64,000 nt of DNA from a bacterium (GCA_963675755.2 CAXXMD010000003.1:64001-128000), one strand, 5' to 3'; positions 51,308 to 61,316 are shown, counted from the first letter of the stretch. Program-made: numbers and translations. The notes: generated by a model not told the origin, from the letters alone.

Positions 51308-52007
51308 TTAGCCATCTTTCCGAGGGATTAAAACTGCTGGAATGATCTGCTATTCCACACTATATTTTGAACCAAATTTGAGATATAAATAAACAGAGGA
51401 TATAATTTCTATTTTTATCTGTGTCAATCCGTGTAAATCCGTGGCTAATTTTCTATTCTTTTTTTATTGAGCCACAGATCTGCACGGATCCTCACGGATT
51501 GTTAATTCTCCGTCCCAAATTCGATTTGGGACGGAACTACTGTGCAAAGCTCTGCTTTGCAAATAACTATAAATTAACGTCTTGTGCACCGCGCAATCCT
51601 CTCCAGGCACAGCCTGGAGCCAACTTTCCTGCCCAAATACAATTTGGGCAGGAGATTGATTTAGCCATCTTTCCGAGGAATTGAAACTGCTGGAATGATC
51701 TGCTATTCCACACTACATTTTGAACTAAATTTGAGATATAAATATCCAGTAGATATAATTTCTATTTTTTATCTGTGTCAATCCGTGTAAATCCGTGGCT
51801 AATTTCCCATTCTTTTTTATTGAGCCACAGATCTGCACAGATCCTCACGGATTGTTAATTCTCCGTCCCAAATTCGATTTGGGACGGAACTACTGTGCAA
51901 AGCTCTGCTTTGCAAATAACTATAAATTAGTGTCTTTTGCACCGCGCAATCCTCTCCAGGCACAGCCTGGAGCCAACTTTCCTGCCCAAATACAATTTGG
52001 GCAGGAG
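51308..52007. repeat. Tandem direct duplication with 353-bp period; each unit is degenerate C + B + 147-bp A element
   Basis: ttagccatctttccgagg starts at 51308 and 51661; both end tttgggcaggag (51654, 52007); only scattered mismatches. Confidence 0.92.
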
Positions 52008-52071
52008 CGTTAAGGGATCGTTACTTATATACAAGGATTGAGAACCCTCGGGAGGATTTGCTGTTATACCA

Positions 52072-53070
52072 TCAAACCATCGGTCGTTTAAAGTATTCAA
52101 CTTTACCATCCGCCAGATCTGCAACCTGAGCAATCAAATCATTGCGTTGAGTTTCGCTCAAACTGACAAAAGACTTGGCCAGTCCGATTTTCTCCTTTAC
52201 CAGCTCTGCATTTTCAGCGCCGGTTATCAATACACTCACCGGTAACGACCATACAAAATTCAACGCCGACTGGATACTCATCCTGTCCGGCACAACCGGA
52301 GTCTCTGTTTCCCACTGAGTGTCTCCAAGCTTTTCTTTTTTCGCAAAGAACCTGCCATCCGCCAGGGTCTTCATAGCCAACAGGGATATATTCTGTTTTT
52401 GTAATTCGGGTACGACTTGACGAATAAAACTGTGGTAACTGGGATCAATTACATTAACGGGCATCTGCGCGGTGGTGAACACGTTCATTCCTTTGGTACG
52501 TTCCAGCATACGCAGGTGAGCTTCAGGATTACTGTGTCCTGTAAATCCTATATGGCGCACTTTGCCTTGTTCTTTGGCTTTGATAAATACATCCAGCACA
52601 CCATTCTCAATACGTGTATCCACATCCTCCGGATCGCGCAGCGAATGGATCTGCCACAAGTCCAGATAATCCGTGTTTAACCGTTTTAACGAAGCATCCA
52701 GATGCGCCTGCACGGTTTCCGCATCTTTGCCGGTGGTTTTGGTCATGATAAATGATATATCGCGATATTGGGGAGTAAGATACTTGCCGTATCGTTCTTC
52801 ACTGGTATGCGGTCCGTAGGATTCCGCCGAATCAAAAAACCGGATGCCGCCTTCAAGCGCGGCTTCAATTGTTTCCTGCGCGTCCCGTTCGGTTGTCCAC
52901 CCCACATGGTAACCGCCAAGCCCCAGCATGGTCACCTTTTCATTGGTGCCCAGTAATCGCTGGGGCAACAGAGCTCCCAACCTGTCTTTTGTCTGCAATT
53001 CTGTTGCACATCCTACCAGAATGGCAGAGGTTGCCAGCGACATATTTTTGATAAATTCTCTTCTTTTCAT
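52072..53070 (-). CDS. Aldo/keto reductase, Tat lipoprotein
   Basis: GGAGG RBS; KRREFIK...LVGC; LGLGG, FFDSA..YG..SE, MTK, SL.RL.TDYLDLWQIH, G.VR.IGFTGH, AMKTL. Confidence 0.9.
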   Translation of the reverse strand: MKRREFIKNMSLATSAILVGCATELQTKDRLGALLPQRLLGTNEKVTMLGLGGYHVGWTTERDAQETIEAALEGGIRFFDSAESYGPHTSEERYGKYLTPQYRDISFIMTKTTGKDAETVQAHLDASLKRLNTDYLDLWQIHSLRDPEDVDTRIENGVLDVFIKAKEQGKVRHIGFTGHSNPEAHLRMLERTKGMNVFTTAQMPVNVIDPSYHSFIRQVVPELQKQNISLLAMKTLADGRFFAKKEKLGDTQWETETPVVPDRMSIQSALNFVWSLPVSVLITGAENAELVKEKIGLAKSFVSLSETQRNDLIAQVADLADGKVEYFKRPMV

Positions 53071-53342
53071 GGTTACCTCCTTGTTGACAAATCTATTACT
53101 TCTGAATCGCCAAATCTCAATATATTCAACCACGAATGTATGAAAATTATTCTAACGGAATCTTTTTAACGGGAAATACACCAAATGCATGGCAAAAGAC
53201 AATACGTGTCTAAACTATTTTCTCCGTGTATTATGTGTTCAAAAACTATTAAACCACGAAGGAAAGAAGAACTCGAAGAAAATTTAACTATCCATTCCGA
53301 AATTAATACTATTAATCACAAGCCTGACAAGTGAATTCATCT

Positions 53343-54017
53343 TTAAAACCGGTAACTCAACAAATCCATTTTAACACCCGGTTTGCCGCAGGAATCCTGG
53401 AAATAGCCCACTTGCCCTATAGATACATTTTTATCCGACTTGACGGGGCCTAAATTATAGGATAATATCGAAAAAGCAGGTGGTAAGACATATGTTAAAA
53501 CAACTCCCAAATTAGAATCAGAGGTTTCCAATGCTACCATCGCAATACCCGTCCCCAAAACAGAACCGCCCAATGCCCACAGAAAAGACCGGTCTTTTTT
53601 TGCTATCACTCCTGTAACATGTACGCCACCCGCTATTCCCAACGCGTAACCTGCAAAAACCGTAAGAAACAATCCTCCCACATCTGTATCCCGATTATTG
53701 ACAAACTGATTGCCATCAATTGCCAATCCCGCTGCCACACCCAGGGCTCCCCCCAATTCTGCCAGAATTAACTGCACCACGTAATAATCGGTCTCATATA
53801 CAGGATGCTTCATATCAGATAATCGCAAAGCATTCATTGAAATACCCGGTTCTGAATTATACCGAAAGGTATTCATACAAAAGTCATTCTGAGAAGCATT
53901 GGATCGGGGGAAAAGTTGATGTCCAGATGAATTGTGCTGTACTTGTGCAGAAACTAACGAGCTGAACATAAACAGCAACGCCAATATTACTTTAACAAAA
54001 ACAATTTCTTTTCTCAT
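53343..54017 (-). CDS. Array paralog P1: exported glycine-zipper protein with C-terminal ...KMDLLSYRF
   Basis: Signal peptide; QLILAELGG, GYALG..GVH..G, SF..AL.GS..G, LPP..S...YN, GQVGYFQDSCGKPGVKMDLLSYRF. Confidence 0.8.
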   Translation of the reverse strand: MRKEIVFVKVILALLFMFSSLVSAQVQHNSSGHQLFPRSNASQNDFCMNTFRYNSEPGISMNALRLSDMKHPVYETDYYVVQLILAELGGALGVAAGLAIDGNQFVNNRDTDVGGLFLTVFAGYALGIAGGVHVTGVIAKKDRSFLWALGGSVLGTGIAMVALETSDSNLGVVLTYVLPPAFSILSYNLGPVKSDKNVSIGQVGYFQDSCGKPGVKMDLLSYRF

Positions 54018-54040
54018 AACTTTTTCCCTCACAAATCACA

Positions 54041-54736
54041 TTAAAACCGATAGCTCAACAAATCCATTTTAACACCAAGGCCGCCGCAGGCATCCTGATA
54101 ATAGCCTAGCTGTCCTACAGAGATTTCAGGAGAATAATCAGTCCCGTTCAACTCTTTGTGATCTTGGGGTTTTGCTTTTTTATTATACATCGCCATTGAA
54201 CAAATCGGTGGCAACAAAAAACCAGCTGTGATACTCAAAGTTGAATTACCGGGATTTGAATCAGTTTCCAATGCTAAAACACCAATTGCTATTGCTGTTC
54301 CTAATAGAGACCCCAACAATGCACGCTTGTAAGATCCGTTTTGCCCAAATGCTTCACCTATACCATATGATCCCAATGAAACTCCCATAGCAAACCCTGC
54401 ATAAGTAGACAGCACTCCTCCGGCCATCGAACCGTCAAGAATATTAAAACCTATTAATGCTCCTGCAAATAAACCCAAACAACCCGAAACTTCAGCTATA
54501 ATAAATTGTCCAGCCAAATAATAACCATCATAAATATCTGTATTTGTTGCTACAGCAGATTCACGATCATTTAATCGCGGAGATTGATATTGACACAGAT
54601 TTACCGACCTCTCGCCCTGGTAATTGTATGGCACCAACCGGGGAGTGTTATCGGATTTGCTTTCGGGTTCCTGTGCGAAAACCGTAGAAGAGAATACCAT
54701 GCAGATAGTGACAAGAAACAAAAAGCTGTTTTTCAA
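54041..54736 (-). CDS. Array paralog P2
   Basis: AAGGAG RBS + TTG; signal, QEPESKSDNTPRLVPYNYQG, same core motifs, EISVGQLGYYQDACGGLGVKMDLLSYRF. Confidence 0.82.
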   Translation of the reverse strand: MKNSFLFLVTICMVFSSTVFAQEPESKSDNTPRLVPYNYQGERSVNLCQYQSPRLNDRESAVATNTDIYDGYYLAGQFIIAEVSGCLGLFAGALIGFNILDGSMAGGVLSTYAGFAMGVSLGSYGIGEAFGQNGSYKRALLGSLLGTAIAIGVLALETDSNPGNSTLSITAGFLLPPICSMAMYNKKAKPQDHKELNGTDYSPEISVGQLGYYQDACGGLGVKMDLLSYRF

Positions 54737-54973
54737 AATATGTCTCCTTGATAAAATTATAGCCCAAACAGGATTTTCCCCATGCGTTTTAAATTAAATT
54801 TTTTAGAGGTAATGTATGTATGTACGAATGGATATACTCAATGTTCCATTTTGAAACCGCGCAAATCCTGCTAAAGACCGGGAGCGTTTGTAAGAGTTCA
54901 GCACTAAAAAAATCAAACATTCAATCCTATCATCCTTAAATCCGATAAATCATAATTCAGACAGATAACCCGA

Positions 54974-55681
54974 TCAAAACCGGTAACTTAACAAATCCAA
55001 TTTAATGCCAGGGCCGCCGCATGCATCCTGATAATATCCGAGCTGCCCGACAGAGATTTCAGGTGAAAAACCAGTCTCTTTGAATCTATTGGGATATTTG
55101 GATTTAAATTTTCTGTTATAATTTATCATGGAACAGATTGTGGGCATAAGAAGCAATGCTGGACCTGTAAATACCGGAGTCTTGCTGTCTTTTTCTATTG
55201 CTGCTATGGTCATTCCTATACATGCCCCAAATAAAGAACCTTCAAGTGCTCGCCAATATGTACCATTTTGTACCTGTTTATAACCTGTTCCGTGTACTCC
55301 AAAAGCAACCCCTAATGTATACGACGTATACCCTATAACGATTGCAGCAGCAAGTCCATCCCATCCTTCTCTCCTGAACAAAGCTGGCCCCACGAGTACA
55401 CCGGTTGTCATCCCAAGCCCACCTATAAACTCTGCCATTAAAAATTGTTTAACAAAATATCCGAACGTAGCGCCTTGACCGGTTTCTGATAAAGGTTCGA
55501 CAGAACCCTGTAAATTCAATGGATCGGGATAACACCAATACAAGTTGACAGTACTTTTACCCTGAAAATTATAGGGAACAAGCCGGGGAGCATAATCAGA
55601 TTTGCTTTCGGGTTCCTGTGCAAAAACAGTAGAAGAGAATACCGTGCAGATAGTGACAAGAATCAAAAAGCTTTTTTTCAA
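54974..55681 (-). CDS. Array paralog P3
   Basis: AAGGAG RBS + TTG at 55681; QEPESKSDYAPRLVPYNFQG; ends QDACGGPGIKLDLLSYRF. Confidence 0.82.
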   Translation of the reverse strand: MKKSFLILVTICTVFSSTVFAQEPESKSDYAPRLVPYNFQGKSTVNLYWCYPDPLNLQGSVEPLSETGQGATFGYFVKQFLMAEFIGGLGMTTGVLVGPALFRREGWDGLAAAIVIGYTSYTLGVAFGVHGTGYKQVQNGTYWRALEGSLFGACIGMTIAAIEKDSKTPVFTGPALLLMPTICSMINYNRKFKSKYPNRFKETGFSPEISVGQLGYYQDACGGPGIKLDLLSYRF

Positions 55682-55835
55682 AATATGTCTCCTTGATAAA
55701 ATTATAGCCCAAACAGGATTTTTCCCCATGCGTTTTAAATTAAATTTTTTAGCGGTAATGTATGTATGTACGAATGGATATACTCAATGTTCCATTTTGA
55801 AACCGCGCAAATCCTACCGAGGGCTGGGAGACAGA

Positions 55836-56564
55836 TTAGAACCTGCAACTCAACAAATACATTTTAACACCGAGGCCGCCGCAGGCATCCTGATAATAGC
55901 CAAGCTGCCCCACAGAGATTTCAGGAGAATAATCAGTTTCTTTGAATCTATTGGGATATTTGGGCTCAAGTTTCATGTTATACGCTGCCATAGAACAAAT
56001 CGTCGGTAGAAAAACTATAGATGCAAATATAATATTGGTTTCCTTTCGATTATAATTGTCAAATGGCCTAAATGATTCAGAATGTGCAGCAATGATCCCC
56101 AAACCCATTCCTGCTGTCGCCCCAATCAACGACCATTCGTACGAGCCCTTCTTTTTTGCTTTTCTGCCCATTCTGAAAACACCGTTGGCAACCCCAAAGG
56201 AATAACTTGCATATATAATATACAATCCTGTATCAATAGCGTGCTCCTCATCGGCTGCTCCAATCAAAGCTACACCCAAAGTACCCGCCAGAATCCACAT
56301 GAATCCGCTTGTTTCAGCCACAACAAACTGCAATATATAATAATCAAGAGGAGAAATTGTTTCCCAGGATACGGAATTCTGTTCAATTCTGTAAAAATCC
56401 GGCAAATCCGTAATATCTTTGTATAAATTAAAGGTGTTTTTTCCCTGGTAATTGTACGGAACCAGCCGGGGAGTATTATCTGATTTGCTTTCGGGTTCCT
56501 GTGTGTAAACCGTTGAAAAGAATGCCATAAAGATACTGACAAGAAACAAAAAGCTATTTTTCAA
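55836..56564 (-). CDS. Array paralog P4
   Basis: AAGGAG RBS + TTG; QEPESKSDNTPRLVPYNYQG; ends QDACGGLGVKMYLLSCRF. Confidence 0.82.
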   Translation of the reverse strand: MKNSFLFLVSIFMAFFSTVYTQEPESKSDNTPRLVPYNYQGKNTFNLYKDITDLPDFYRIEQNSVSWETISPLDYYILQFVVAETSGFMWILAGTLGVALIGAADEEHAIDTGLYIIYASYSFGVANGVFRMGRKAKKKGSYEWSLIGATAGMGLGIIAAHSESFRPFDNYNRKETNIIFASIVFLPTICSMAAYNMKLEPKYPNRFKETDYSPEISVGQLGYYQDACGGLGVKMYLLSCRF

Positions 56565-56798
56565 AATATGTCTCCTTGATAGAATTATCCTGGCAGGAAC
56601 AAGCCCCTTTGCGATTTAAATTCATTTTTTAGCAATATTGTATGTATGTACTATTGTACCAGCCCGATGTTCCATTTTGAAACCGTGCAAGTCCTGCTAA
56701 AGGCCGGGAGCGTTTGTAAGAGTTCAGCACTAAAAAAAACAGCATTCAAACCTTTCATTCTTAAATCCTATGAATCATAATTCAGACAGGAAACCCGA

Positions 56799-57494
56799 TC
56801 AAAACCTGCAACTCAACAAATCCATTTTAATACCGAGGCCGCCGCAGGCATCCTGATAATAGCCAAGCTGTCCTGTAGATATTTCTGGTCCATGGGATTT
56901 AGAGTTGCCTTTATTATACAATATCATTGAAAGCGGAATCGGCAGTAGAAACGTCAATGCCGCCCCCACATTAGCGACTTCTGAACCTTGTCCCGCAATA
57001 ATGGCGCCCAGCCCAATACTGGTTCCAATTGCAGATCCCATCAAAGCCTGTAAAAACGGCAAGTCCTTATTATTGATGATACCAACCACATGCACACCTG
57101 TTGCAACTCCCAGAGCATATCCCGCATAAGCAAATCCAACCAGTTTTACAAAATCACTGCCCTCTTCATCATCACTGAATTCAACCCCGCTAAAGTTCAC
57201 TCCTGCTGCTGTCCCCAACGCTCCTCCCAATCCTGCCATTAAAAACTGTGATATTAAATACCCGCCTTCTGGTTTATTTTTTTTATTTAGGGATGTATTA
57301 TCAGCATTTCTGAACAAACTCGAATTCGCATGATAGCGGTTCAAATCCACTCCCATATCCTTTTGCTGAATATAGGGAATAATTCGGGCTGCATTTTCAA
57401 ATGTAATGCCTAAACCCGGGTCGGTCGCATACACTGCCTGCGTAAATAAAAGACAAACCATTAACACACTGCCAAAGCCAAATATCTTTTTCAT
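56799..57494 (-). CDS. Array paralog P5
   Basis: Signal peptide; QFLMA, GYALGVATGVH; ends QDACGGLGIKMDLLSCRF. Confidence 0.82.
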   Translation of the reverse strand: MKKIFGFGSVLMVCLLFTQAVYATDPGLGITFENAARIIPYIQQKDMGVDLNRYHANSSLFRNADNTSLNKKNKPEGGYLISQFLMAGLGGALGTAAGVNFSGVEFSDDEEGSDFVKLVGFAYAGYALGVATGVHVVGIINNKDLPFLQALMGSAIGTSIGLGAIIAGQGSEVANVGAALTFLLPIPLSMILYNKGNSKSHGPEISTGQLGYYQDACGGLGIKMDLLSCRF

Positions 57495-57581
57495 TCAAGC
57501 ACCCCATTTCTGTTTATAAACCCGGATTTATCCCCGGGAACCTAAAAAAAATCTATACCGATTACAAAGCAATTCCGACTA

Positions 57582-58295
57582 TTAAAATCTACAGCTCAAT
57601 AAATCCATTTTAACGCCTGGGCCGCCGCATGCATCCAGATAGCATCCAAACTGACCGGCAGATATTTCCACAGAGCGGGTATTATTCGCACTTGCAGAAT
57701 CCCGTTTATTATAAAGTATTATGGAACATACCGGCGGCAGTAAAACAAGAGACGAAAGACTAATTACAGCCTGGGGCTTGTTATTATCCAATTGAGAGGT
57801 AATGGCTATTGCCAATCCTACTCCAATAAAAGATCCTTTTAGCGCCTTACCAAAAGAACCGGAGACATTTGCATAACTCCCAACCTTGTGAACACCAAAA
57901 GCCGAACCCAATGCATACCCGGCATAAGCACCGATCACGACAAATTCAATTCCATCCATATCTTCACTTTGACTATCCACAAAAGGTATGCCGCAAATCC
58001 CCCCAACAAAGGACAGGATTATACCATTAATCTCTGCAGATACAAATTGCTTGATATGCAATTTGGAATTTATATTTTTTTGTTCATTTTGATTTATGTC
58101 AGATAACGCAATTCCGGAATACTGTCCTGTGCTCATACGAAAAGCCGATAGGTTATCCCCGCTGTAATGTAAAGACACAGGGAACGATTTTACATGGGTC
58201 TGGTTAGAATTGTGCTGACCGGCAAGGATTTTTGTGGCAGACAACAGCGCCAAAATTAATAGTAACTCTAAATGTATTAATCGAAATTTCAACAT
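57582..58295 (-). CDS. Array paralog P6
   Basis: Signal peptide; QFVSAE, GYALGSAFGVH, GSF.KAL.GS, LLPPVCS...YN; ends LDACGGPGVKMDLLSCRF. Confidence 0.8.
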   Translation of the reverse strand: MLKFRLIHLELLLILALLSATKILAGQHNSNQTHVKSFPVSLHYSGDNLSAFRMSTGQYSGIALSDINQNEQKNINSKLHIKQFVSAEINGIILSFVGGICGIPFVDSQSEDMDGIEFVVIGAYAGYALGSAFGVHKVGSYANVSGSFGKALKGSFIGVGLAIAITSQLDNNKPQAVISLSSLVLLPPVCSIILYNKRDSASANNTRSVEISAGQFGCYLDACGGPGVKMDLLSCRF

Positions 58296-58336
58296 CTCCC
58301 CTCTCAAATATTAATAATCGCAATAGATAATCCGCT

Positions 58337-59092
58337 TTAAAATCGCCAGCTAAAAACATTCACAATAACAGTATTCCCCCTCTTTTCATCATGAGAATAG
58401 TTGAACGCATTCATGGACAATCCTACATTTCCGCCATCAATGCTCACAACAGAATTCAGATCATTCATATGACTGGTAATATTATAACTTGCGATAGCGC
58501 CAATGGTTGGCAAAAAAAGAGTCAAAACCGAAATACTTTTATCATCATTAAATTCTTCATCACTTTCATCATAAGCATTTTCAACCATTAATCCCACCCC
58601 TGTTCCAATTAGCGCACTGGTCAACGTCCACCAAAAAGAGCCGTATCTATTCGCTTTTTCACCAACCCGATACACACCATCCACAACGCCATATGTATAA
58701 CTAGCAGATACAACATAATATCCGGTTTCAGACATATCCCAGTCATTCCCCACGTGAACAGCATATACAACCAGGGCACTTGTAAGCAGGCATATAAGCC
58801 CTTCGGTTTCTGCCATTAGAAACTGTAAACCATAATATTGTATAGAATTAAATACACTTAGATCATGAGCTCTATATCCATCTGTTACTGAATTATAAAC
58901 CAGAAAATCCAGATCCAATGCCTCTTTCCCCTGGTAATTAAAAGGAACCAAAACCGGACTATCGTCTAGTGTATTAAATTGACTGGTCATTTCTGTTGTT
59001 TTTTTATTCCTCTGTAAAAGGTTTTGCGGAAAAACGGTTGAACAAAAAATCAGTGCTAATAAAATCCCGGCCCGTAGTGATCTGAGATACAT
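58337..59092 (-). CDS. Array paralog P7 (most divergent tail)
   Basis: Signal peptide; PVLVPFNYQG, QFLMAE, SYTYGV..GV..VG, GSFWW.L, FLP.I.....YN; ends VIVNVFSWRF. Confidence 0.78.
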   Translation of the reverse strand: MYLRSLRAGILLALIFCSTVFPQNLLQRNKKTTEMTSQFNTLDDSPVLVPFNYQGKEALDLDFLVYNSVTDGYRAHDLSVFNSIQYYGLQFLMAETEGLICLLTSALVVYAVHVGNDWDMSETGYYVVSASYTYGVVDGVYRVGEKANRYGSFWWTLTSALIGTGVGLMVENAYDESDEEFNDDKSISVLTLFLPTIGAIASYNITSHMNDLNSVVSIDGGNVGLSMNAFNYSHDEKRGNTVIVNVFSWRF

Positions 59093-59213
59093 TCATATCC
59101 CCCAATTTATGACAGCCGGTCCGGATTAATAAATCTGCAGATAAAAATCGCGGTACATTATAGGGAACCAACTATCAGGATAAAAAGCTGTCTATTGATT
59201 ATTATCGTTTAAC

Positions 59214-59248
59214 TACCCGCTTTAAGGCCAAGTTCCTTCAAGCGGGTA
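59214..59248. terminator. Hairpin downstream of GH106-like gene
   Basis: tacccgctt...aagcgggta stem. Confidence 0.55.
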
Positions 59249-59276
59249 ATTTTTCAAATCGAACAGCCAGCGATGT

Positions 59277-61316
59277 TTATCCCAATACTCCGGAACTGTC
59301 TACTGCCACAACGACCATCTTGTGTGCCGGCAGATCAAGCGGAGCATTTGCATCCATAGCCACAGGTTTGGAAGATTTAATATCCAGCAAATACAGTTTA
59401 CCGGAAAGGCTGAATTCGGGCTTCACTTTAAGGTCTGATTCGCCTTCATTAAAAATCATATAGCAGTTCAAGCCTTCTTTAACAACATGCCGTACCCGAA
59501 TATCTTTGGCGTCTGCACCAAATTTAACATCCCGGTCTGTTAGCTTGTCTATGGCAGAAACAAGTACTGCACTATCCATACCGGGGTTCCAGCGGATGAC
59601 TCGTCCCGCTTTTTCTAAAATGTCTAAGGCGGATTTGGCCTCTTCCGGTATTATCACCTCCGGTTCAACAACAAGGGTCTTGTAATGCATACCGGCAATA
59701 TGAATACCGTCTTTATCCACTTTAGCGTCTTCCCATAAATGCCGTGCTTCCAGATAATTAAAGTCGATCTGGTTTTGAAAACAAACCTTGGCAGATGGCC
59801 AGGGCAAATAATCGTTCAATCCCAGAATTGCAACATCACACACCTGTTTGCTGTCAGTATTCAACCAGCATAAACGACTGGTAGCATCGGCAAAGGGCTT
59901 GAATTCGCCCCACCAGGTATTGTTGGGACCAACATCCGGCGGACGTTCATCAACACGCGGGCCCCGCACAGAGTAATAAAACGCATGCGGATATAAAAGA
60001 TTGCAGCCACGAACAATCAGCCAGTTTGCCAGCCATTTCATTTCACGAAAGGTAAAATCGTGCCCATACGCGCCGCAATACTCGTTGGAATTGCGTCGGC
60101 GTCCCAGGTGAACCATAGCAGACGATGCACACTTGCCCATGGTAGATTGGGGTCCTTCCAGCGCGTTGGGTTTACCCGGTTCAACATAGCGCCATACAAT
60201 ATCCTGTCCCGGAAAATGAAAATAACGCAGATGCCCAATATCATCGGGATCCGCCGGGTGTCCGGCCAAAGCGACATTGTGTTCGCTGCACCACTCGGAT
60301 ATAGGTTTGTAATAGGTTTCTTCCAGACGTGCTTCCAATGCACGGTCATAATCCAGCCTGTACTTTTCCGCGTCCGGTTCATCATCAAACCATAATGCAG
60401 CCAAATGCGGAGTAAAATCATAACCCAGCCACTCGTTTACAAATTTCAACACATCCGCGTTGCCGGGTTTGGCGCCGCGTTCGCCCCGCTTGCCAAAAAA
60501 TGAAGGTTCATCCGTAAACACAGCTTTGATGGTTTTGCCGAAATGTTTTGAAAATTCATCATAATATCGTTGATAGACCAAACGGATAAAGCATTGCATG
60601 GCCTCAGGATTCAAAATATCGCCCAGTTCCGGCATATTTTCAGGGACTTCTTTTTTTTCAGGACGGCGTTTTGCGTCAGGATCGACAAAATGCAATCCGC
60701 GTATCAAAGAATACCCATCACTGATAAACCGGTCAACAACTGCAATTTGGTGTCCGTCCTGTTTACGTTTCACAATGGTAATCAGGTTTTGATCTTTTCC
60801 CATAACCGGTTTGCCATCCGCACCGATCTTGAATCCCTGTACTTCATCACCAGGTTTAACACTGTCCAGATCGATATAAAACAACCCGCGGGGACGATAA
60901 GCGCGGTTCTCTGCAACGACCTGTCCGCTTGCAGAACCACTGGGGTACATGCCTTCATCATACAGTACCACCCACATGTCCTTTTTTTCTGCCAAATCAA
61001 TTGCATAACGCATATAGTGGATCATTTTATCACTCATCCAGCCAATATCACGCGGTAATCCGGCACGGGGATGAATCACAAATCCATAAACACCATGATC
61101 GCAAAAGTCCTGCATTTGACGTGCAATTTCTTTTTCAGTCAAACCATCATTCCAGAACCAGAACGGTGCCTGAGAAAACTCGTGTGGCGGTACAGACCAG
61201 CTTTCAAGAAAAGCGTGTTGTGGAGCTTGGGAACTATTGAAACAATTCAATGCCGCGGCAGATCCGGCCACAGCAACTGAACCTATAAAATGACGCCGGG
61301 ATATTTTCATAATCAT
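59277..61316 (-). CDS. GH106-like (alpha-L-rhamnosidase-related) glycoside hydrolase, Tat lipoprotein
   Basis: SRRHFIG...LNC; PFWFWN, IHPRAGL, LYDE..YPSG.A.G.V, FTDEP, PG.D, SSA....GR....E..GAYG, G.N...PHAFYYS. Confidence 0.7.
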   Translation of the reverse strand: MIMKISRRHFIGSVAVAGSAAALNCFNSSQAPQHAFLESWSVPPHEFSQAPFWFWNDGLTEKEIARQMQDFCDHGVYGFVIHPRAGLPRDIGWMSDKMIHYMRYAIDLAEKKDMWVVLYDEGMYPSGSASGQVVAENRAYRPRGLFYIDLDSVKPGDEVQGFKIGADGKPVMGKDQNLITIVKRKQDGHQIAVVDRFISDGYSLIRGLHFVDPDAKRRPEKKEVPENMPELGDILNPEAMQCFIRLVYQRYYDEFSKHFGKTIKAVFTDEPSFFGKRGERGAKPGNADVLKFVNEWLGYDFTPHLAALWFDDEPDAEKYRLDYDRALEARLEETYYKPISEWCSEHNVALAGHPADPDDIGHLRYFHFPGQDIVWRYVEPGKPNALEGPQSTMGKCASSAMVHLGRRRNSNEYCGAYGHDFTFREMKWLANWLIVRGCNLLYPHAFYYSVRGPRVDERPPDVGPNNTWWGEFKPFADATSRLCWLNTDSKQVCDVAILGLNDYLPWPSAKVCFQNQIDFNYLEARHLWEDAKVDKDGIHIAGMHYKTLVVEPEVIIPEEAKSALDILEKAGRVIRWNPGMDSAVLVSAIDKLTDRDVKFGADAKDIRVRHVVKEGLNCYMIFNEGESDLKVKPEFSLSGKLYLLDIKSSKPVAMDANAPLDLPAHKMVVVAVDSSGVLG

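Follow-up and report, generated by a model that had tools for sequence, protein, structure and literature searches.

A genus-specific tandem array of seven predicted exported glycine-zipper proteins with a Phe-terminal tail, candidate members of a new family of envelope anchor modules

The nearest described kind of protein to those reported here is the glycine-zipper membrane protein of the bacterial envelope. A preprint (10.64898/2025.12.22.696046) describes SlyB and YfgH as lipoproteins whose glycine zippers span the outer membrane and which, under stress, assemble or are predicted to assemble into ring-like oligomers that surround lipids and outer-membrane proteins (OMPs). We analyzed 64,000 nucleotides of bacterial DNA (GCA_963675755.2 CAXXMD010000003.1:64001-128000; hereafter the window, with positions counted from its first letter) and focused on seven tandem genes at 53343-59092, all on the minus strand, whose open reading frames (ORFs) encode proteins of 229 to 251 amino acids (P1 to P7). 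The ORF listing of the window places these co-oriented paralogs exactly where an initial annotation, made from the DNA alone, had put them. Judged from sequence comparison, the array arose when a widespread but unnamed family of predicted Sec-exported membrane proteins expanded in tandem in this genus only. The family is new and uncharacterized, and no description of its architecture was found in the open-access literature searched.

The array proteins share with the SlyB/YfgH/OsmB type (PF05433 'Glycine zipper 2TM', Rick_17kDa_Anti) Sec export (predicted for the array), diderm hosts, a beta-strand segment after the zipper, and GxxxG helical hairpins that are equally low in hydrophobicity (approximate insertion energies of +4.4 and +8.4 kcal/mol for the two Escherichia coli SlyB zipper helices and a median of +4.2 for the array). 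They differ in having no lipobox, in carrying two zipper hairpins as a four-helix bundle rather than one hairpin, and in ending in a Phe-terminal hairpin where SlyB has its own beta domain. The lipobox pattern [LVI][ASTVI][GAS]C is absent from all seven N termini, and a looser pattern occurs in 3 of 149 wider-family representatives (this and later counts of representatives, 149, 141, or 131, rest on the best 150 of 604 profile matches). PF05433 matches none of the seven proteins at an E value of ≤1 and only 2 of the 149 representatives, weakly (best E value, 4.8e-4), while PF13488 and PF13441 give one match each among 84 aligned members. An hhalign comparison of the 84-sequence profile with a single SlyB sequence, a target that limits sensitivity, returned a probability of 4.4% over 25 columns. 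Given the missing lipobox, the lack of a hidden Markov model (HMM) match, and this hhalign result, the family does not appear to belong to the SlyB class and by analogy would work like that class at most.

Three other groups of proteins resemble the array in part. Beta-barrel assembly machinery (BAM) substrates also have a Sec signal peptide and a C-terminal strand that ends in Phe, in which positions −2 and −4 are hydrophobic and −1 and −3 polar, and autotransporters likewise join an N-terminal passenger to a C-terminal anchor. The array proteins depart from such barrels in having a hairpin only, with no barrel-sized beta domain, in a register shift beyond −4, and in an anchor that is mostly alpha-helical. 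Tim17/Tim22/Tim23-like and dolichyl-phosphate mannose synthase (DPMS)-type domains are compact up-down bundles of four glycine-rich membrane helices as well, but they belong to energized inner membranes, follow the normal charge bias, and have neither a signal peptide nor a beta tail. CdzC/CdzD, the Tde1 N terminus, TelE, and EsxX reportedly use glycine-zipper helices as the membrane-active element, and Tde1 fuses a nuclease to a glycine zipper, as do some members of the present family. These toxins differ in using type I, VI, or VII secretion together with cognate immunity genes, whereas the array combines a Sec signal with purifying selection. They show no sequence match to the array proteins, and neither type I secretion genes nor immunity genes, the companions expected from CdzC/CdzD, were found among the eight neighboring ORFs scanned; the link to CdzC/D-type toxins that had been raised for this locus was not recovered.

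Evidence for a separate family comes from profile searches. A Pfam scan of the seven proteins gave nothing above an E value of 0.096 and an NCBIfam scan gave nothing meaningful, which agrees with the initial description of the paralogs as exported, glycine-zipper, and uncharacterized. When 1.84 billion representatives were searched exhaustively with the profile, 604 proteins were returned at an E value of ≤0.001, of which 40 reached ≤1e-10 and 8 reached ≤1e-30, the last being the array and its sister copies. Pfam assigns no family to the core in the 149 representatives, giving only stray weak glycine-zipper matches; the profile search of PDB sequences yielded low-complexity matches only (best E value, 0.05), and a word-indexed homolog search with the family alignment produced eight matches and was swamped by low-complexity words. 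Members are named 'hypothetical protein' in the databases (Latescibacteria, Aerophobetes) or, for the nuclease fusions, 'thermonuclease family protein' (Ignavibacteriales), and the nearest ESM-Atlas clusters are unnamed and derive from Aminicenantota, Ignavibacteriota, and Myxococcota. Within the window's phylum, 30 of 167 genomes contain a match at an E value of ≤1e-5 (28 of 165 without the two unpublished genomes G158 and G162). Most genomes with matches have one or two copies, and ten are found only in this genus, made up of the array and three singletons. In the genome under study (G000) the singletons lie outside the window, on contig C3 at 2725072-2725740, 968407-968958, and 2373159-2373713; one carries a tail ending in Phe like those of the wider family, and two have a signal peptide and end right after helix 4. 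Several wider-family representatives contain two cores.

Each paralog carries a signal peptide as previously claimed, read here by eye from K/R in the n-region, a hydrophobic segment, and a V-x-A-like site preceding Q/T/G. P2 to P7 are 27 to 40% identical to P1, and the seven-sequence alignment has 17 invariant columns. These include the motifs that had been proposed for the four Gly-rich segments (Q..A...G opening helix 1, G...G....G within helix 2, L.....G within helix 3, and P.......YN within helix 4), together with a terminal S.RF. A profile of the seven sequences searched against the whole genome recovered each paralog at E values of 1e-77 to 1e-103, so the paralogy is far beyond chance. 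Conservation is highest at the C terminus: mean identity among P1 to P6 is 79% over the last 28 columns (range, 67 to 93%), 34% in the helical core, and 25% in the signal peptide and linker. The P7 tail is 27% identical to the others, although it still ends in ..SWRF, and it lacks the loop Cys (D[AS]CG) that P1 to P6 share. The alignment therefore upholds the near-invariant tail described for six paralogs, the divergence of P7, and the conserved Cys. At the DNA level the tails are 77 to 89% identical with the differences at synonymous sites, which indicates that their conservation reflects selection and not recent conversion.

The complete and independent chromosome of a sister species (G001, locus L019) has a seven-gene array at the corresponding position, so the array is not an assembly artifact. 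In both genomes it is bordered by the same genes, which are 95 to 97% identical between the two. Six one-to-one ortholog pairs show protein identities of 79 to 95% and omega values of 0.13 to 0.34, and these genes are under purifying selection. The N-terminal part evolves fastest (omega, 0.22 to 0.55), and the core and tail are held more tightly (tail, 0.02 to 0.30); with omega at ≤0.55 in every region, the six pairs give no sign of diversifying selection. The earlier proposal that the helical domains are the diversified part is not sustained, as the helical core is conserved and it is the N-terminal linker that varies. P4 is unique to this genome, and G001 instead has an extra paralog between its P2 and P1 orthologs (L019 6803-7513). 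The comparison shows that the array gains and loses members and that its gene birth and death have been recent.

An AlphaFold2 model of P2, built with the 84-sequence alignment, consists of a signal-peptide helix (amino acids 1 to 21), a disordered linker (22 to 70; predicted local distance difference test [pLDDT] score of about 50), a four-helix bundle (71 to 186; nucleotides 54179-54526), and a C-terminal hairpin (204 to 231; nucleotides 54044-54127). The helices span residues 71-99, 104-129, 136-160, and 166-186, with pLDDT values of 84 to 98 for the block, and strands are placed at 204-206, 210-214, 220-224, and 228-230 (pLDDT, 60 to 87). A distant family member gives the same bundle at a pLDDT of >90. 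The four glycine-zipper helices are thus confidently predicted to form one bundle, and the C-terminal hairpin is predicted with moderate confidence. AlphaFold packs the helices within one chain, in place of the oligomeric helix packing that had been anticipated, and the P2 model, with its four short strands, contains no beta domain of eight or more strands in one chain. A multimer prediction for four copies of P2 residues 66-231 with an 84-row alignment scored 0.00 with the partner fold uncertain and counts neither way. Foldseek found no match in the PDB at an E value of ≤0.001. The best VIA-align match, to the four-helix membrane domain of DPMS, has a Z score of 8.1 and a root mean square deviation of 3.8 over 119 residues. 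Behind it come tetraspanins and Tim17-like chains (Z score, 5 to 6), TIM23/TIM22 chains (5.0 to 5.3), and TraT (4.1). All these values lie in the range of unrelated helical bundles, and SlyB is absent among the matches listed. The fold comparison suggested for the core therefore recovered no characterized family and only generic helical-bundle scores. Separately, the 217-residue C-terminal extension of representative P0137, which looks rich in beta structure, was considered as a fusion clue and rejected, having no homolog, no Pfam match at an E value of ≤10, and a pLDDT of <50.

The tail carries features that may connect the family with the outer membrane. All seven paralogs end in Phe, as do 82 of 141 wider-family representatives; among the 150 matches listed (of 604), the C-terminal residue is Phe in 90 and Leu in 20. 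In 112 wider-family C termini, hydrophobic residues occupy positions 0, −2, and −4 (100%, 86%, and 94%), with polar residues at −1 and −3, and then positions −5, −7, and −9. The beta-signal pattern initially read from the tails therefore stands in its terminal Phe and its hydrophobic 0, −2, and −4 positions, but the alternation fails beyond −4, where −6 and −8 would have continued it. The break in the AlphaFold tail coincides with this hydrophobic register shift. Of the 38 TonB-dependent receptors in this genome, 19 have a C-terminal Phe, as do 10 of the 14 Omp85 proteins, compared with 372 of 4,916 ORFs (≥150 amino acids), which supports the likeness of the tail to OMP ends. Among 131 complete representatives, left after 10 fragments and 8 array relatives were set aside, 85 have both a signal peptide and the tail, 24 a signal peptide only, 9 the tail only, and 13 neither (odds ratio, 5.1; the P value of 0.001 is overstated, since the sequences are related and the signal-peptide rule is crude). 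Several of the nine tail-only cases are, by eye, detection misses or truncated starts. With 85 tails on signal-peptide-bearing forms and 9 on others, the tail appears to belong mainly to exported forms.

Tail HMMs run against 18,328 genome ORFs found the seven array genes and, with the broad-tail HMM, one tail-bearing singleton, the next match being at an E value of 0.019; the search for other domains carrying the tail thus met only family members within this genome. This argues that the tail is part of the module and not a general sorting tag. A shared C-terminal sorting tag, such as the C-terminal domain of the type IX secretion system (T9SS), was accordingly rejected, the tail HMM having found no unrelated cargo in the genome, and the Pfam scan of the seven proteins gave no match to Por_Secre_tail.

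The distribution of charge and hydrophobicity bears on which membrane holds the bundle. Over the 84 aligned sequences, loop 1 contains 48 K/R and 214 D/E and loop 3 contains 16 K/R and 57 D/E (sum, 64 versus 271), while a combined 461 K/R and 334 D/E occur in loop 2, the 15 residues that precede helix 1, and the 12 that follow helix 4. Inner-membrane proteins follow the positive-inside rule. Because the N terminus is exported by a signal peptide and the N termini of relatives carry secreted-type domains, the basic side must be periplasmic, which is the reverse of what that rule predicts for an inner-membrane protein (64 K/R on the side that would be cytoplasmic and 461 on the other). The helices are also only weakly hydrophobic: 11 of 28 reach a Kyte-Doolittle value of 1.6 and 4 of 28 stay under 1.2. 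By an insertion energy calculated as a position-independent sum of approximate Hessa-scale values, no 19-mer in any of the 28 reaches ≤1 kcal/mol, the approximate level for Sec stop-transfer. Low-energy segments of 100 multi-pass ORFs from the same genome have a median of −0.32, and 81% of those at ≤2.5 reach ≤1 kcal/mol, although this control set was selected by the same scale, which flatters it. From their composition, the helices look like outer-membrane glycine zippers and not like Sec stop-transfer segments. The host is a diderm, its genome giving 14 matches to the Omp85 family. Taken together, charge, hydrophobicity, and the tail are indirect arguments that favor export and a SlyB-like place in the outer membrane over ordinary residence in the inner membrane.

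As an observation on the host itself, the 6.5-Mb genome matches the Omp85 superfamily 14 times and TonB-dependent receptors 38 times. For Omp85 this is an unusually large set, and it includes several short POTRA-less forms (open frames of 400 to 473 amino acids).

Relatives of the array replace the linker with folded domains. A staphylococcal-nuclease (SNase) domain takes its place in 3 of 149 representatives, a TPR repeat in 1 of 149, and a DUF4901/PepSY-like domain in 1 of 149. Such swaps suggest that the bundle and tail may constitute a C-terminal anchor module for exported domains, and they lend support to the display role first imagined for the array. In the three SNase proteins (P0090, P0126, and P0149, from Ignavibacteriales), the nuclease domain is N-terminal to the four-helix core and Phe tail, which makes them candidate membrane-anchored exported nucleases.

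We tentatively propose, while holding the account as a whole to be somewhat more apt to fail than to stand, that the locus is a tandem array of exported anchor modules targeted by their tails to the outer membrane in the manner of SlyB and YfgH. The module would comprise the four-helix glycine-zipper bundle, a short basic stretch, and a beta-hairpin with an aromatic end, placed C-terminal to a variable passenger that in the array is only a disordered linker of 45 to 60 residues. The signal peptide would direct passage through SecYEG; the helices, too weakly hydrophobic and flanked by the wrong charges, would not stop in the inner membrane, and the whole protein would reach the periplasm. The C-terminal hairpin, which resembles the OMP end signal of this organism, would then guide the protein to the outer membrane, with BamA or some other Omp85 protein perhaps receiving it. 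Both helical hairpins would enter that membrane from its periplasmic face; the acidic loops would point outward, and the basic flanks, the passenger, and the tail would stay in the periplasm. In this position the protein might act like SlyB and YfgH, as an anchor or an envelope-stabilizing belt, and may oligomerize. The seven copies, which differ mainly in the linker, would provide a set of anchors with different periplasmic or surface stalks.

Several observations weigh against this proposal. The register shift at −4/−5 of the last strand is unlike the simple alternation seen when a barrel strand faces lipid, and the four strands of the AlphaFold tail, at three to five residues each, are too short to span a membrane. 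We know of no precedent for a two-strand BAM substrate. The hhalign probability against the single SlyB sequence is only 4.4%, so that homology to the class taken as a model is not detectable, an Omp85 gene lies near a family member in only 2 of the 29 loci examined, and the insertion energies carry the approximations noted above. The remaining points are those that speak for the inner membrane.

That the proteins are instead four-pass inner-membrane proteins, with the signal peptide cleaved or kept as a fifth helix, is unlikely but is the most serious of the alternatives. The linker and tail would then be periplasmic, and the tail would bind a PDZ protein or the POTRA or barrel part of an Omp85 protein. 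The four helices are hydrophobic, 21 to 29 residues long, and compactly bundled, and the best fold neighbors (DPMS, Z score of 8.1) are inner-membrane four-helix domains, although the scores fall below the level that would exceed a common arrangement. The 13 of 131 complete representatives with neither signal peptide nor tail fit an N-in/C-in topology that obeys the positive-inside rule; because such forms exist, the core is presumably also able to reside in the inner membrane in normal topology. Gene order adds to this. In three genomes of one taxonomic family (G058 [locus L027], G067 [L028], and G059 [L034/L049]), the gene lies between BatA- and BatB-type vWA genes, with gaps of 5 and 73 nucleotides in L027, and Bat products are thought to be anchored in the inner membrane. 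The array in the window is not within a MoxR/DUF58/BatA/BatB operon. In G055 and G053 a PDZ-domain histidine kinase is encoded upstream. Against the inner membrane stand the inverted charge (461 K/R that would be periplasmic and 64 that would be cytoplasmic over the 84 sequences), the failure of all 28 helices to reach the approximate Sec-integration threshold, and the length of the tail, which at 28 to 45 residues, if folded, cannot reach the outer membrane.

Within the outer-membrane proposal, a more far-reaching version would make these proteins a new class of non-lipoprotein, alpha-helical glycine-zipper bundles locked in by a hairpin that engages BamA or a POTRA-less Omp85 protein, possibly as rings in which the hairpins form a beta collar; we rate this version as quite unlikely. 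For the outer-membrane proposal in general, support from genomic context comes from two relatives of different taxonomic families in which the gene is one gene away from a POTRA-less Omp85 gene; no neighbor is conserved across most of the 29 loci examined. In G055 (locus L041, contig C4, 4216-13382), genes in one direction encode a PDZ-domain histidine kinase, a sigma-54 response regulator, a 232-amino-acid protein, the family member, an unknown 295-amino-acid protein, a POTRA-less Omp85 protein (385 amino acids), and an endonuclease/exonuclease/phosphatase-family protein. The 232-amino-acid product is an exported protein of the beta-plus-glycine-zipper kind with no Pfam match. The row looks like an envelope-stress-type regulon, and no sigma-54 consensus was found 5' of the genes of this operon. 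The upstream part of the row recurs in G053, a genome of the same genus, on a contig that stops shortly after the family member. In G062 (locus L042), from another taxonomic family, the family member is one gene away from a 382-amino-acid Omp85 protein. Also in this locus (contig C60, 2861-4783), a gene for a 5'-nucleotidase/metallophosphatase with a T9SS C-terminal sorting domain adjoins the Omp85 gene; by its predicted domains, it shows that the phylum uses T9SS.

A further form of the outer-membrane reading, the one put forward in the initial annotation, is that the hairpins of many subunits build a shared barrel or pore that displays the helical domains and is cross-linked through the Cys. 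Oligomeric barrels with two to four strands per subunit exist (MspA, CsgG, and trimeric autotransporters), and the terminal Phe with its hydrophobic 0, −2, and −4 positions, the predicted hairpin (pLDDT, 60 to 87), the concentration of conservation in the tail (79% in P1 to P6; omega, 0.02 to 0.30), and the loop Cys in six of the seven copies are all in keeping with it. We nevertheless consider it improbable: the hydrophobic register shifts in midstrand, AlphaFold shows four short strands and not a long hairpin, and the helices are hydrophobic throughout and so look membrane embedded rather than displayed. The Cys is absent from P7 and from the wider family, and the family is single copy in most genomes; since it is mostly single copy outside this genus, heterooligomers of paralogs cannot be its general mode, contrary to what had been envisaged.

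Least probable, and very doubtful, is a polymorphic arsenal of exported antibacterial or regulatory effectors, acting either as permeabilizing glycine-zipper toxins or by occupying BamA/Omp85 with a mimic of the beta-signal, for although glycine zippers are reported to be the active element of the membrane-depolarizing or translocating toxins Tde1, TelE, EsxX, and CdzC/D, a 2026 preprint offers a precedent in protein antibiotics reported to inhibit BAM via C-terminal peptide beta-signal mimicry (10.64898/2026.09.25.754295), and the family has nuclease fusions and gene turnover between sister genomes, the array has no immunity-sized ORFs between its genes, lies among glycoside hydrolase and oxidoreductase genes with no secretion or toxin genes nearby, is under purifying and not diversifying selection, carries a Sec signal that would deliver the products into the producer's own periplasm, and belongs to a family with a housekeeping-like single-copy distribution elsewhere.

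To our knowledge, nearly all integral OMPs are beta-barrels, and the few helical ones (SlyB, YfgH, Wza, and TraT) are lipoproteins that use the Lol pathway. If the present family is truly in the outer membrane, it would represent a second way to place helices there, without a lipid anchor, and would imply a wider range of Omp85 substrates and, in the more far-reaching version, a BAM/Omp85-dependent route for helical membrane proteins. It would also supply exported enzymes, nucleases among them, with a natural anchor module at the C terminus, in poorly studied phyla and in the FCB group and other diderm phyla. An inner-membrane location would instead make it an unusual exception to the positive-inside rule, and even then the family, with at least 600 clusters at 50% identity and a confident new four-helix model, merits a name and a Pfam entry.

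The individual genes, all on the minus strand, are as follows. P1 (53343-54032; 229 amino acids, GTG start) has the complete set of signal peptide, linker, four glycine-zipper helices, and tail (..LLSYRF), with a profile E value of 4.8e-83 and a G001 ortholog that is 88% identical (omega, 0.15). P2 (54041-54736; 231 amino acids), the protein modeled above, has a 95% identical ortholog (0.13), and P3 (54974-55729; 251 amino acids from the first ATG) has one that is 88% identical (0.32). P4 (55836-56564; 242 amino acids; tail, ..LLSCRF) has no ortholog in the sister array, its best G001 match being 44 to 46% identical. P5 (56799-57494; 231 amino acids), P6 (57582-58307; 241 amino acids), and P7 (58337-59092; 251 amino acids; divergent tail ..VFSWRF without the loop Cys) have orthologs that are 90%, 79%, and 79% identical (omega, 0.28, 0.30, and 0.34). 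Intergenic gaps range from 8 to 237 bp. Of the eight flanking ORFs scanned, two are without a match, and the other six encode glycoside hydrolases, oxidoreductases, or a glyoxalase-like protein; none belongs to a secretion system or is associated with toxins.

The region upstream of P2 (54737-54973, minus strand) is conserved, with similar copies 5' of P3 (about 55682-55835) and P4 (56565-56798) that correspond to direct-repeat families D3 and D5. These regions of about 130 nucleotides are 74 to 83% identical on the minus strand and contain a GTACATACATACA stretch and an AAGGAGA ribosome-binding site. They are probably individual promoters or 5' leaders, and P2, P3, and P4 each seem to have kept their own. 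An Rfam scan of 52000-60000, leaders included, gave zero matches, promoter and terminator scans were at background level, and the sigma-54 consensus has no site within 53343-59400 (five matches in the window against 5.0 expected). The first ATG of P3 lies inside the leader, which is conserved but noncoding 5' of P2 and P4, so that the first 48 nucleotides of the ORF fall within it, and the database form of P3 (P0002) has 235 amino acids. The true start of P3 is therefore probably 16 codons further in (about 55681), giving a protein of 235 amino acids.

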